Source: Alkanindiges illinoisensis DSM 15370
GTDB lineage: Bacteria > Pseudomonadota > Gammaproteobacteria > Pseudomonadales > Moraxellaceae
Assembly (NCBI RefSeq): GCF_000619845.1
Contig: NZ_JHUX01000003.1
Location: 280,064-312,063, forward strand
Length of the DNA stretch: 32,000 nucleotides
Reading direction: 5' to 3'
Positions 12,001-18,000 of the stretch are shown here, one piece after another. Position 1 is the stretch's first letter; each line of letters opens with the position of its first letter. Made by a program: the position numbers.

Positions 12001-15000
12001 ATGAAGTGGTTGATGTGGCTGATAATTTGCCGACATCAACCGACCAGAGGGTGTGGCTAGATACCACTGCATCATCCCCGCACCTAAGCCGGAACTTGTG
12101 CTTAGCAACAGCTATAGGTCAGTTGGGCATAGAAGATTTGCCTGTTCATGGCGAGCCTATTAGCTCAGAGATAATAACTAATGAGCCTGTTATTGATGGA
12201 CCACAAACTCAGCTCGACAACGAAGCTGCACTGTTTAATGAGCCTCTGACCGAGTGTGAGCTTATCGCTGATCCCGTCAATCATCCATCGCACTACACAT
12301 CAGACCCAAGTGGCATTGAGTGCATCCAGATTACCCGTCACCGTAATTTCAATATCGGCAATGCTATTAAATATCTATGGCATGCTGGCCTAAAAGACCA
12401 GTCTGCCACAGTCCAGGATCTGCAAAAGGCCATCTGGTACATCAACGACGAGATTGAGCGTTTGAAAGGGGAGCAGGGGGAATGAGTACAGTAGAAATTT
12501 ACAATGAACCCATTACTGGCCGTCTTTTCGTGGTTGGTGATATTCATGGCTGCTATAGCTTGCTCATGGCCGAACTTGCCAAGCGCGGCTTTGATTTCAA
12601 TAACGACTTACTAATATCTGTTGGTGATTTGATTGATCGTGGCCTGCAAAACCAAGAGTGTGTCGGATTGATTGGAAAGTCTTGGTTCAAAGCGGTTCGC
12701 GGTAATCACGAGCAGTTTTGCATCGAGGGCTTTCTTGATTACAACATAGCTCGCCAACATGTCATGAGCAATAACGGTGGCGCATGGTTCTATCAGTTAA
12801 ATAATCACATCCAGCAGCAAATTGTTAGCAAATTTCAATCCTTGCCCATTGCCCTTGAGATTAGTTTTAAGGGTAAGAAGTACGGCTTTGTGCATGCCCA
12901 TGTTGAGCAAAACGACTGGGAAGAATTTAAGGCTGAATTAAATGCTGGTGGCAGTGAATCATATCGCTCGCCAGTAGACATGGCACTTTGGAGCCGTGAC
13001 CGTGTTTATGCACATTCCAGCGAAAACCAATATCAGGCCATAAAAAATATTGATGAAGTTTACTTGGGGCATACCGTCTTGCCGCGGCCTATGCGTAAGC
13101 ACAATTGCATCTTTATTGACACAGGGGCTTTCCATACAACGCTGCTGACTGTCATTGAGTTGAAAGGAGAGCAACATGGCGCACCAGTTTCAGTACCACG
13201 AGAGGATCAATCCGACACTTGTCCGGGAAGCAATGGAATGGGCAATCAGGGAGAGAAAACCAATGCGTAAATTTGATGTATGGAAATGCGCAGAGTGTGG
13301 CAAGGAGGCTCCAGCTACCGCCCATCAAATGCGTAAAACATATTGTTCAATGAGCTGTATGGCTCTTGGTTATTCCAAAAGAATGCAGGGTGACTCTAAT
13401 CCAAACTTTAAGAGTGCCGCGCTCAAGACCTGTGTGGGCTGCAATAAAGAGTTTAAATCATACAATAAGACACGCAAATATTGTTCACATAAGTGTTATC
13501 AGTCAGAAAGAGCCTTATTGCAGGCATCCAAGCCACTCAAAACAAAACAAAAATCAAAAACTGCTAAGGCTACACAAAAGAATTTATCGCCAAAAGTTAA
13601 AAATTCAGTAAAGCCCAAAAAGAGCAATTACATACCAAGACCCAGAATTAAGCATATGACAAATTGTGGTCATTGCAATCAAGAGTTCCAATCGTCAAAG
13701 AGTCAGGCTCGCAAATTTTGTAGTTATGAATGTTTTTTAGATAGCGGTGGTGCACAAAGAGCAGGAGAAGCAGCAGCTATGGCCAAAAGAGCTTATGGAA
13801 ACAAGAAAGATGCAAATCACAATGAAATATTTGATGCCTTAAGAAAGATTATTCCAGTGCGTGATTTGAGTGATGCTGGCTGTGGTGTGCCAGATGGAAT
13901 TGCATGGATTAAGGATGGTTGGCATTTATTTGACGTAAAAAATCTTAAAACCGCCTATGGCCGCCGTGGTTTAAACCCCCGACAAAAACAATGGTCGAAT
14001 GATTGGCGTGGCGGGGCTGTTTATCTGATCCACGATGTTGATGAAGCGATTTTATTTGCAACAGGCAAGTTTGATCAGCTTAAGAAATTTCCAGAGGAAA
14101 ACCGGATATGAGAATAAGCATTAGACGCTGGCAGGGTCAAAAGGCGGTGGTTAATTCAGTAGATGCGGCTATTCAAGTGATTGTGAATTTGGGTGAGGGC
14201 TGAGTGATGAACCAAGCAGTTAAAATCTGGAATAAAGAAATTAAAGGCCATCTGTTTGCTGTGGGTGATTTGCACGGCTGCTACAACCTGTTAATGCTCA
14301 AGCTTCAGCAGATTGGCTTTGACTTTGAAAATGACTTGCTGGTGTCTGTGGGTGACTTGGTAGACCGTGGCATTCAAAACCTTGAGTGTATCGGCTTGCT
14401 GGATCAGCCATGGTTTACCGCAGTGCGTGGCAATCATGAGCAACTTTGTATTGATGCGCTGGTGCATCCAGCCTCCAAGCGTTGCCATGTTGGCAATGGC
14501 GGTGAATGGTTTTATGAGTTGGATGACCAGCAGCAAGACCAGATCGTCAAGAAGTTTAAGAAGTTGCCCTATGTGCTAGAGATAGATCATAAGGGCGAGA
14601 AATTTGGATTTGTCCATGGTCATATTGAGCAGAACGATTGGGAGCAATTCAAGCAGACATTCCAGGATAAAGACAGACAGCGCGGCGCAAAGGATTTGGC
14701 AATTTGGGGTCGTGAGCGGTTTGACATGAATCCCAAACATAAGACGGTTACTGGTGTTGATGCGGTAATTATGGGGCATACCGTCACACCAAAGCCGTTT
14801 AAGCGTGACAACTGCTATTTCATTGATACAGGCGCAGTCCATTGGGGAACATTGACTGTAATGAGGCTAGGGTAAGGGGAAGGGATATGAGCGTAGCAAT
14901 TAAAGGCGTAGTGCAGGAAGAAAAGTTTGATGTCATTGATATGCTGGCTCTACTCAATGACCAGCCGCCGGAAATGGGCAAAGGGCGAGGCGGTAGGCCG

Positions 15001-18000
15001 AAGTACACCAAGGCGGACGTATTGGAAGCTATGGTGGGCTTGCCGGATCATATTGTGCGTTATGCGTACCTGCTGGCTGGTAATCTGCATATTGAGCGTG
15101 TGCAGGAAATCATCTATCCGGTTGCTGATGATGAGTTTGATGATGAATCAGGACGGGAAGCACCGAAGCGTAAACGCAAGGAACGTGAAAAACCAGTGGT
15201 ACTCAATACCCGTGTGCTGATTAAAGATGCTGACTTCTTTCGTGTGCGTAATGTGGTGCGTGTCTTTATCAATGAAGTGCTGAAAACAGACAAGAAACGG
15301 CCAAAGGTAGGGGAACTGGACATTATGGCTAAGGGTCTGGCGCAGTGTGCATTGAAGATGCGCTTGTATCGCAACCATTACACGCTAGAGAACGAGATAG
15401 TCATGGCTGGGTTTAGTATGGCTAAAAACAATTACGCTAAAACATGGCAGGTTTATCGCGTTCTAGCCACATCTGAACTGATGCTTTGGGAAGATCAGAT
15501 ACGCCTAAAGCTAAAGCAATTGTTTGATTGTTCGACTGCTTGACAGTTGGGTAACGAAATAGTATAAGTATTTCTATAGTGGGCGTTTTATGAATGTATT
15601 GCTCACATCAAATTCAAAGGTCGCCTGTGCGGCCTTTTTTGTTGTCACTTATCAGCGTGTCAACACAGATAGGCAAAGTAGAACAATAAGACACTTACAC
15701 TTGATTTGGGCAATGTTGCCTTTTCAGGAGTAAGTGCAATGTGCACTCCATTAAACGAAAAATCTATTAATGTTTGGGCTGTAGATAGTGTAGGTGTTTT
15801 ATTTCCTGCAAGGGCCATTTATTCAGTAAAGTCATGCGCTAATGTTCATATAACAAGCATTGACCGCATTGATTTGTGCAGTGGCAAGCGGCTGATAAAG
15901 AGAGAGTTTGATACTTTCTTTGATGAATCTGGTCAAGGCTATGATATTCGGGCCAGAAAAACACTATTAGGTTAAATTTAAACAGCATTAAGGCTCACTA
16001 CGGTGGGCTTTTTTGTTGCCTGAGGAAAGGTTATGGCTTGGCTCAGACAATTTTGTGATTGGTTCAAGTGGTACTACTGGACTTCAACGAAATGCAAGCA
16101 TGACGAAGGCCGTTGGATTCATTTCAATACAGGCATGAATAAGGCAAGACACTGCAAAAAGTGCGGTAGATGCCTAGAGATTGTTTAATAGTTTCGCCCA
16201 CTTCGGTGGGTCTTTTTATATGTGAGGTTTGATTATGGCAGCTCCAGTCGGTAATCGGTTTTGGGAGCAGCGTAGCTCTCATGGCCGCAATCCGGCTTTT
16301 GAGAATCCAGAACAACTCTGGAGCGCTGCTTGTGAATATTTTGCATGGGTGGAAGAAAACCCGTTAAGTGAAGAAAAGCTATTTGCTTATCAGGGTGAAA
16401 TTAGTCGTGGAACGATTTATAAGATGCGCCCAATGACTATTCAGGGCTTATGCTTATTTCTGGATATTGGTACATCAACCTGGAGTGACTACAAAAGGCG
16501 CGAAGATTTTTCGGCTATCGTAAGTCAGGTTGAATCAGTCATTTATGAGCAGAAGTTTGCCGGTGCTGCTGCTGATTTGTTGAACGCTAATATCATTGCC
16601 CGTGAGTTAGGGCTTACTGATAAGTCAGAGCAGAAACACACAGGCTCAGTCGAAGTCACTTCAATTACCAGGCGCATTGTTGATCCTAAAGGCAAAGAGG
16701 ATGGAACTTGATATTGCGACACCACGCTGGGCTGTACCGTTATTGCAGCCTTCCCGGTACAAGGGAGCACATGGTGGACGTGGTAGTGGTAAATCCCATT
16801 TCTTTGCTGAAAGACTGGTAGAAGATTGCGTTGTAAATAAGAACTTGCGGGCAGTCTGTATTCGTGAAGTGCAGAAGTCTATTCGATTCTCCAGTAAGCA
16901 GCTTATTGCAGACAAGATCAATGCACTGGGTGTTAGTCACTTATTTGACATTCAGCGTGACTTGATTAAGCGGGTTGGTGGTGAAGGGGTCATTCTTTTT
17001 CAGGGGATGCAAGATCACACAGCCGATTCTATTAAGTCGCTAGAGGGCTTTGACCGGGCATGGATTGAAGAAGCACAAAACATTAGTGCAACATCATTAA
17101 GGCTGCTAAGGCCAACAATCCGTGGTGATGATTCAGAAATTTGGGCGTCATGGAACCCAAAAAGCAAAGACGATGCCATTGATGTGTTTTTGCGTGGTGA
17201 GCTAGCACCATCAAACAGCATTGTGGTTGAAGTCAATGTTGCTGATAACCCATTTGCTACCCAGACATTACTTGATGAGTATGCCGATGACCGTCGCCGT
17301 GCAATCAAGATGCAGCAGGCTGGTGATGCGAATGCGTGGAACTTGTTTGAGTGGGTATGGCACGGTGCTTATCTTGAGTTTAGCGAAGCAATTATTTTCT
17401 CTGGTCGCTATGTGGTCGATGAGTTTGAGCCACAACCAGACTGGACGGAAGTTTATTACGGCTCTGACTGGGGCTTTGCTCAAGACCCAACCACGCTAAA
17501 CCGCATGTTTGAGCATGACAACATTCTGTACATTCGGGATGAGGCCCATCAGGTAGGCTGCGAAATTGATCACTTGCCAGACTTGTTTGATAAGGTGCCA
17601 GGCGCACGTACTCATGAAATCAGGGCTGATAATTCAAGGCCTGAAACCATCAGCTACATGAAGCGACAGGGCTTTAAGATCAAGGCAGCAGATAAATGGC
17701 CGGGTAGTGTTGAGGACGGCATTACTTTTATGAAGAAGTACAAGCAGATTGTCATTCATCCGGACTGCCCAGAAACCGCTAAAGAGTTCAAGGTTTATTC
17801 ATACAAGGTGAATAAGGCAGGTGATGTGTTGCCAGAGATTCTGGACTTGCACAACCATCACATGGATGGCATTCGCTATGGCCTTCAACCGCTGATCCGT
17901 AATAGAAAACGGCAAGCCCCAGCAACTGGCGGCACTCGAACATTTTAGGTAAATTCATGGCTAAAGATAAACAAAAGGCTGCTCGGCAAAAGGCGGTTTC

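Follow-up and report, generated by a model that had tools for sequence, protein, structure and literature searches.

The window analysed here, a 32,000-nucleotide (nt) stretch of contig NZ_JHUX01000003.1 from Alkanindiges illinoisensis DSM 15370 (positions 280,064 to 312,063 of the forward strand), contains a temperate lambda-like phage (Table 1). We are concerned with the gene that occupies the position of the late regulator Q in this phage, which encodes a protein of 218 amino acids (aa), and with the promoter, -10-like hexamer and terminator that follow it at 15540-15644. Ahead of the gene, the early rightward operon includes a replication initiator-like gene, DnaB and two NinI-type phosphatases; from 16235 onward there are genes for the small and large terminase, a Mu-type portal (nearest to a Psychrobacter phage portal, at 38%) and a MuF head protein. 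As in lambda, where Nin 221 abuts Q in the sequence record, the gene comes after a nin-region phosphatase and before the late promoter, although the late operon of the window differs from that of lambda in opening with small open reading frames (ORFs) and terminase rather than with lysis genes. The upstream genes and the morphogenesis modules vary among related loci, which may have Mu-type, P22-type or other portals, but the position of the gene does not: it is the last before the packaging genes in every related locus with enough context. The initial annotation, made from the sequence alone, had assigned the 218-aa gene to the Q slot, and this is true here as well as in all the related loci that we examined. 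A Pfam scan of 21 ORFs of the window, covering the early rightward operon together with the first of the late genes, turned up no canonical Q.

Table 1. Positions in the window of the 218-aa gene, the elements of the proposed late cassette and neighbouring features.
Feature	Position	Strand	Evidence or remark
CI-type repressor	6670-7383	minus	Peptidase_S24 and HTH_3
P22-type Cro	7502-7693		
NinI-type Ser/Thr phosphatase	14204-14875	+	phrog_246, E 4.9e-84; Pfam Metallophos; directly 5' of the 218-aa gene
218-aa Q-slot protein, putative Q-like antiterminator	14887-15543	+	translation; ribbon-less clade of the PHROG 6172 family
Ribbon deletion junction, codons Leu160-Tyr161-Arg162	15367-15375	+	alignments A3 and A4
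Turn and putative recognition helix, codons 176-192 (SMAKNNYAKTWQVYRVL)	15412-15462	+	AlphaFold2 (AF2) helices 167-174 and 180-186/188-217
-35 hexamer TTGACA	15540-15545	+	sequence; overlaps the TGA stop, 15541-15543
17-bp spacer GTTGGGTAACGAAATAG	15546-15562	+	proposed protein-binding element (inferred)
-10 hexamer TATAAG (hexamer 1)	15563-15568	+	followed by 6 nt, TATTTC
Candidate sigma-dependent pause element, -10-like TATAGT (hexamer 2) and GGG	15575-15583	+	TATAGT at 15575-15580
Leader hairpin HP1, GUGGGCG / 14-nt loop / UGCUCAC	15579-15606	+	minimum free energy folds; between pause element and T1
TATG	15589-15592	+	+14 to +17 if the start is A15576
Terminator T1	15616-15644	+	9-bp stem (15616-15637), 4-nt loop, TTTTTTGTTG tail; would end a leader RNA of about 65-69 nt
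78-aa ORF	15739-15975		between T1 and T2
Terminator T2	15990-16018	+	after the 78-aa ORF
51-aa ORF	16033-16188		between T2 and T3; paired CxxC-like cysteines
Terminator T3	16193-16218	+	after the 51-aa ORF, just 5' of terS
Small terminase gene (terS)	16235-16711		start of the packaging genes
Terminator	about 21366-21400	+	
Intergenic terminator in the late operon	28297-28325	+	5' of a 1064-aa ORF
Terminator	about 31856-31885	+	

The sequence downstream of the gene has the geometry of lambda PR'. The lambda record reads TTGACT-(17)-TAAATT-TGACTC-AACGAT-GGGTTAATTCG and the window TTGACA-(17)-TATAAG-TATTTC-TATAGT-GGGCGTTTTATG, with the same succession of -35 hexamer, 17 bp, -10 hexamer, 6 bp, -10-like hexamer and GGG; a TNYG-type element lies some 14-17 nt into the window transcript, with a terminator after it. 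In lambda the Q-binding element (QBE) is placed in the spacer between the -35 and -10 hexamers. Transcription in the window would probably start at 15575/15576, which puts hexamer 2 where a sigma-dependent pause could act. Such pause elements consist of a -10-like sequence, often with a discriminator-like extension; at lambda PR' the pause is at +16/+17, and the scrunched paused state favours T-N-Y-G at +14 to +17 (bioRxiv 10.1101/2022.01.24.477500). The phages with Q21 and Q82 have, at the equivalent position of the genome, a cassette of promoter, sigma-dependent pause element and terminator (PMC9388147), and all four sequence elements of the Q-dependent class defined in that paper are present in order in the window. 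Each coordinate that the initial annotation had given for promoter, pause and terminator proved correct on inspection of the sequence; its suggestion that the protein has an engagement site of its own was not borne out, the geometry being that of lambda PR'. The site of Q21 is a direct repeat, bound by a dimer of the protein (PMC9388147), whereas the window site has no direct repeat and its pause hexamer stands at the lambda position.

The arrangement TTGACA-N17-TATAA-N7-TAnnnT-GGG occurs once in the window with two mismatches allowed and in none of 100 dinucleotide-preserving shuffles (expected 0.00), and no other consensus-like promoter was found on the plus strand between 15.6 and 20.8 kb. 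The window promoter itself is absent from the list returned by our promoter scan, because TATAAG ends in G and the scan demands T at the last -10 position. We also considered hexamer 2 as the true -10 and rejected this as a general reading: there is no -35 at 16-18 bp from it in the window or in the Acinetobacter clade, and a CTGACA 18 bp upstream of hexamer 2 is found only in the L001, L003 and L007 variants.

The unit is conserved among relatives and coupled to the gene family, whether one starts from the protein or from the DNA. Beginning with the protein, 92 loci provided 58 unique downstream contexts, and 57 of these have the unit, in the form of a -35, 17 bp, hexamer 1, 5-6 bp, TAnnnT and GG, followed by a terminator. 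In 51 of these the sequence fits the regular expression, and in the other six, from one clade, it reads TATATA-AACAC-TATGCT-GGTCG. Beginning with the DNA, the 23-nt motif TATAAR-NN-TTTC-TA-NNN-T-GGGCG matches at least 119 IMG/VR contigs, and of the 124 ORFs ending 19-42 nt upstream of hexamer 1, 122 encode family members. The initial annotation had described the unit of promoter, second -10-like hexamer and terminator in this one sequence, and both counts support it. Close relatives retain TTGAC[A/T], TATAA[G/A] and CTA[T/G]AGTGGnCGTTTT, with the spacer occurring in discrete variants, and the unit is kept in homologues of only 24-32% protein identity. Examples are L011 (TTGACA-17-TATAAG-TTTTTC-TATGAT-GGGCG), L014 (TTGACC-17-TATAAG-AATTTC-TATAGT-GGCAG), L010 (TTGTGT-17-TATAAA-AACAC-TATGCT-GGTCG) and Acinetobacter phage B1251 (TTGACT-17-TATAAG-TATTTC-TAAAAT-GGGCG).

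The individual elements are constrained to different degrees. Nearly every related locus has TTGAC[A/T/C] 17 bp 5' of hexamer 1, and hexamer 1 is TATAAG, TATAAA or TATATA in 57 of the 58 unique contexts, preceded in several clades, not including that of the window, by the TGn of an extended -10. Hexamer 2 has T1, A2 and T6 fixed with variable inner bases (TATAGT, TAGAGT, TATGCT, TATGAT, TAAAAT) and is followed by GG in all cases, which is the pattern that would be expected of recognition by sigma region 2. Among 26 distinct family leaders, the two T positions of TNYG are occupied by T in 25 and 24. In almost every related locus a terminator lies 35-60 nt past hexamer 2. Hexamer 2 always ends in T and hexamer 1 never does, a difference that may skew the transfer of sigma region 2 to the pause element.

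A polymerase starting at this promoter would meet T1, T2 and T3 before reaching terS. Because these tandem terminators precede the packaging genes, processive antitermination is the most economical reading, as had been proposed at the outset from the series of terminators. T1 lies about 40 nt past the pause element, whereas in lambda tR' the U-tract is about 190 nt past AACGAT. The leader of the related locus L001 (7194-7917) is longer than that of the window, at 725 nt; no gene is called in it, and it has three terminators, at about 7413-7440, 7738-7765 and 7816-7838, of which the first is about 190 nt downstream of hexamer 2 and the third is almost identical to T3 of the window. The interval 7232-7412 of L001 is long enough for a structured RNA.

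The short transcript that is predicted to end at T1 invites comparison with lambda 6S RNA and with StxS, which PMC7547250 describes as a small RNA (sRNA) of Shiga toxin (Stx) phages derived from the short PR' transcript. Both of these resemble the predicted RNA of the window, which would be a constitutive transcript ending at the first terminator past the late promoter. The window leader is much shorter, however (about 67 nt), and has a conserved 5' hairpin that is not known in the other two. One could accordingly propose that the 218-aa gene is a nin-region accessory of some other function, and that the promoter and terminator make up an independent sRNA gene, comparable to StxS, which merely happens to be its neighbour. 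A compact leader of 65-69 nt with a 5' hairpin, an A/U-rich single-stranded stretch and a terminator does have the typical shape of an sRNA, and there is precedent for an sRNA derived from PR' (PMC7547250). An sRNA role and a Q cassette are nevertheless compatible, as both hold in Stx phages, and the proposal leaves unexplained the -10-like hexamer with fixed T1, A2 and T6 at +1 to +6, the covariation (described below) of a protein helix with spacer DNA upstream of the transcript, and the expression of late genes that lie behind T1-T3 with no other promoter. We regard it as quite improbable. A search of the whole window against Rfam at the gathering threshold, together with a tRNA scan, gave no match.

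The 5' hairpin, HP1, raises a different alternative. A hairpin of this type (GGGCG, 12-15 nt, CGCC(C)) is possible in most related leaders, with 76.9% of cells paired as against 35-50% when the partner is slid, and the changes within it are mostly of G-U type, which suggests pairing at the level of RNA. An RNA element that acts on RNA polymerase (RNAP) in cis, as the put sites of HK022 do, might make the protein dispensable, and the inverted repeat GGGCG..CGCCC and its G-U-type changes would fit such an element. The put RNAs are two-stem structures. HP1, with a stem of 5-7 bp and a loop of 12-15 nt, is far simpler than these; it is missing from L001 and from one clade (L010 and L136-141); and it has only two compensatory cells. 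Antitermination by an RNA in cis at a constitutive promoter would, moreover, keep the late genes on in lysogens. We consider this explanation very improbable indeed. HP1 could instead stabilise the short RNA or endow it with a separate function, by analogy with StxS.

Turning to the protein, we found that it belongs to phrog_6172, a family of unknown function, which it matches at E 3.1e-16 over residues 12-161; gp14 of Acinetobacter phage B1251 (YP_007010595) matches the same family at E 8.7e-140. A word-indexed search with the window protein returned only five close relatives, with 71-97% identity, while an exhaustive search of 1.84 billion representatives added six more family clusters and a profile search widened the family to 33 proteins at E <= 1e-19. 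A scan of IMG/VR based on the family alignment A4 (31 sequences) found at least 198 viral contigs with a family protein, and a search of the same database with an alignment of the close clade gave no match, nor did megablast of 14000-17000 or tblastn of the window protein against phage records; the wider family surfaced only through the exhaustive representative search and the A4-based scan. By tblastn the family is present in temperate phages of Acinetobacter baumannii, for example B1251 (gp14) and Ab105-3phi (ALJ98989). The named members, from A. baumannii, A. pittii, A. nosocomialis and A. seifertii, are all entered in NCBI or UniRef as "hypothetical protein" or "Uncharacterized protein"; at least 984 contigs carry one and the same exact sequence. 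The family is common in Acinetobacter prophages and carries no functional annotation. The B1251 and Ab105-3phi proteins share the slot and the downstream cassette of the window protein, and differ from it in being 244-250 aa long, in having kept a zinc ribbon and in having TAAAAT as hexamer 2.

In A4, all clades except that of the window carry CxxCxGxG-N(9-14)-CxxCxGxG between an "AL..RL" and a "YTL.E" motif, and two such knuckles are present in 62 of the 72 unique family proteins adjoining the DNA motif. The Pfam DnaJ_CXXCXGXG model is matched by five distant family members, as it is by many members of the lambda-Q family. The window protein and its closest relatives (P0001-P0005) have a clean gap at the ribbon site ("...KMRLY|RNHYTLE..."), and the window protein is a derivative that has deleted the ribbon. 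The ribbon-less proteins are maintained by selection, because pairwise ratios of nonsynonymous to synonymous substitution (dN/dS) within the clade are 0.04-0.18, indicative of purifying selection.

Lambda Q has a disordered N-terminus of 60 residues, which later forms an RNA-exit nozzle, and a four-helix body in which the last two helices form a helix-turn-helix (HTH); a zinc-ribbon arm (residues 114-152), inserted in the body, touches positions 11-13 of the binding element as well as sigma region 4 (PMC9388147). The wider family has the same order of parts, namely a low-confidence N-terminus, helices, a zinc ribbon with two knuckles and then, in the ribbon-carrying clades, an HTH-like helix pair. 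It departs from lambda Q in an extra insertion at residues 66-113 and, in the window clade, in the complete absence of a zinc ribbon. With A4 as input, AF2 gave a model with a mean predicted local distance difference test score (pLDDT) of 70.9, as against a useless 42.7 on a six-sequence alignment. In this model prediction is good for the C-terminal domain, whose helices span 115-134, 144-161, 167-174, 180-186 and 188-217, confidence is low at residues 1-14 and 27-37, and the insertion is modelled as a beta-hairpin and a charged (acidic/basic) linker. When this model was compared with BFVD by Foldseek, the best match was an unnamed protein of 179 aa (E 1.1e-3) and the second-best a prediction labelled "Antitermination protein Q" (E 4.9e-3, probability 1.0, template modelling score 0.47).

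The initial annotation had described the 218-aa protein as lacking a Cys-rich zinc motif, as lacking Q-like features in general, and as having no resemblance to the lambda, 82 or 21 Q proteins. The first statement is accurate, the translation having two Cys and no CxxC. The second applies to the window clade and fails for all other clades, which have the double CxxCxGxG ribbon and the HTH-like pair. The third stands for the window protein taken alone, which matches no Pfam family at E <= 1, nothing in NCBIfam and, in a sequence search of the PDB, no Q; it does not stand for the wider family, with its lambda-Q domain plan.

If the HTH-like pair contacts DNA, the promoter spacer is the likely binding site. 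Several spacer types occur (AAACAGAAC, GTTGGGTA, CCTGACAG, GGTTAATAG and others), each paired with a particular sequence of residues 176-192, the turn and putative recognition helix. Across 94 unique protein/spacer pairs, which are not independent of one another, spacer identity gives a Spearman coefficient of 0.874 with residues 176-192, 0.797 with the C-terminal tail, which is physically nearer to the spacer, and 0.654 with the N-terminal domain; a multiple regression gives beta values of 0.70 for the patch 176-192 and 0.22 for the tail. The Ab105-3phi type, though distant, has the half-spacer GTTGGGTA in common with the window, and the residues K-[TS]-[WY]-Q as well. Recombination within the window clade has split N-terminal from C-terminal variants, and the patch 176-192 and the spacer have remained together. 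The covariation of spacer and putative recognition helix is suggestive of a Q-binding site of lambda type in the spacer, and the probable site would share that location with the lambda QBE, which lies upstream of the pause element (PMC9388147).

Covariation and a putative HTH show DNA recognition at most, and the body of the protein has no detectable homology to any Q. Another possibility is that the protein is an activator or repressor at the spacer of the downstream promoter, with read-through achieved by other means, or only partial and passive. We think this unlikely, as a perfect -35 at the optimal 17-bp spacing does not need an activator, classical activators do not bind inside a 17-bp spacer, and there would be no regulatory logic in a repressor that is produced from the early lytic operon. 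Nor would control of initiation, on its own, account for the three strong terminators in series before terS or for the conserved block of -10-like hexamer, GGG and TNYG.

We therefore favour, with a probability of roughly three in four, the reading that the 218-aa protein is the late-gene antiterminator of the phage and that 15540-15644 is its loading cassette, built like lambda PR'-tR'. We infer that the family acts as Q proteins do, with lambda Q the closest parallel. None of the rival explanations accounts jointly for the tandem terminators, the block of -10-like hexamer, GGG and TNYG, and the covariation of spacer and helix. The promoter activity, pausing, DNA binding and antitermination that we propose are read from sequence, and might proceed as follows. 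The near-consensus sigma70 promoter (TTGACA, 17 bp, TATAAG) would be constitutively active, with transcription starting at about 15575/6, within TATAGT. The non-template strand of TATAGT-GGG would then be bound again by sigma region 2, so that RNAP scrunches and pauses about 16 nt downstream, at TATG. When the protein is absent the polymerase would escape and end at T1, giving an RNA of about 65-69 nt. Once made, as the last product of the early rightward operon, the protein would place its C-terminal HTH on the 17-bp spacer beside the paused complex and then move onto RNAP, and the modified RNAP would pass T1, T2, T3 and later terminators into the packaging, head and tail genes. Because the zinc-ribbon arm is deleted in the window clade, loading there would have to work without it.

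Several results weigh against this reading, beginning with those on homology. Searches of Pfam and NCBIfam with the window protein gave no match to a Q family at any useful threshold, and none of 12 family members matched PF03589 (lambda Q), PF06530 (Q21) or PF06323 (Q82) even at E <= 10. Three zinc-containing family members do match PHROG 127, that of lambda Q, weakly and collinearly (E 0.003-0.007), and the window protein does not. Full-length hhalign comparisons with a 20-sequence lambda-Q alignment gave probabilities of 61-84%, in a register that varies between runs, and with the ribbon removed the values fell to 0.6% for the C-terminal half and 0.4% for the N-terminal half; since ribbon removal leaves less than 1%, the full-length values rest on the common zinc-knuckle motif. 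In a profile search of the PDB the leading matches were to DnaJ zinc fingers (E 0.009), and lambda Q reached E about 2 with its alignment out of register; a lambda-Q hidden Markov model scored the 124 motif-linked ORFs at 12-16 bits. On the strength of these comparisons we have rejected demonstrated homology to lambda Q; neither homology beyond the ribbon nor membership of PF03589 is supported by the sequences. Foldseek with the AF2 model likewise gave no PDB match at E <= 0.001, and no structure of lambda Q (4MO1, 7UBJ and others) or Q21 was among the 50 best matches listed. The family may be either a very remote branch of lambda Q or an independent family of the same plan, the Q antiterminators themselves comprising three unrelated protein families (PMC9388147).

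Other points on the same side concern the DNA. Spacer and recognition helix are only about 60-130 bp apart, and because of this proximity co-inheritance adds to their covariation. The cassette is absent from one clade (P0033/P0010; L012 5379-6017 and L013 226-864), which has convergent genes downstream. In no family member does hexamer 1 have T at -7, a base that is highly conserved elsewhere; this difference from lambda PR' makes the strength of the promoter uncertain. Lastly, in the accessible literature on Acinetobacter phages we found neither a transcript map nor a functional statement for any member of the family.

Some features of the surrounding genes deserve mention. The nin region contains two NinI-type phosphatase paralogues (12482-13270 and 14204-14875, both phrog_246) separated by a 311-aa ORF (13176-14111) that has weak matches to HNH endonucleases, so that the stretch 12482-14875 looks like the product of a duplication or of an endonuclease insertion. 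The 78-aa and 51-aa ORFs have no match in Pfam or PHROG; each has a terminator on either side, in a moron-like layout between the late promoter and terS, and in related loci the place of these small ORFs is taken by a Lar-like gene. An early ORF of 135 aa (8130-8537) matches the SutA RNA-polymerase-binding domain below threshold (23.4 bits against a cutoff of 29.3), has winged-helix matches as well, and could be a further early factor directed at RNAP. In the related phage L004, the large terminase (7874-10126) contains an intein (PF14890) and has 750 aa, as against 423 aa in the window.

The terminators show two peculiarities. The hairpin at 21366-21400 is strong, with 11 bp and a T-tract, and lies 28 nt inside the start of a 335-aa ORF (21338-22345), so that either the start codon of the ORF is wrong or there is a terminator within late-operon coding sequence. 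The tail CTTTTTTGTTG[C/T]C recurs at 15638-15647, 16012-16021 and 28319-28328 of the window, at 7432-7445 and 7760-7772 of L001 and at about 4131-4141 of L014, and may be either a host-typical terminator signature or a mark of copies of one mobile terminator module.

Should the favoured reading be correct, the family may be a fourth of Q type, independent of lambda Q or very remotely related to it, that has either converged on the loading geometry of lambda PR' or retained it, and it may be the standard late switch of the temperate phages of Acinetobacter and other Moraxellaceae; this wider proposal is tentative, and we would give it somewhat less than even odds. A further family on a lambda-type loading site would add a fourth point of comparison for how different proteins solve the same problem on RNAP. 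The ribbon-less clade would be a natural deletion experiment on the element that, in lambda Q, touches sigma region 4 and half of the DNA site: the window clade would be a natural arm-less Q, in which contacts of the ribbon with sigma region 4 and with the distal half-site are dispensable for loading. Naming the late switch, with its promoter, pause element and terminator, would improve the annotation of prophages in the Acinetobacter calcoaceticus-baumannii complex, and the reading predicts a constitutive prophage RNA of about 70 nt in lysogens of a priority pathogen.

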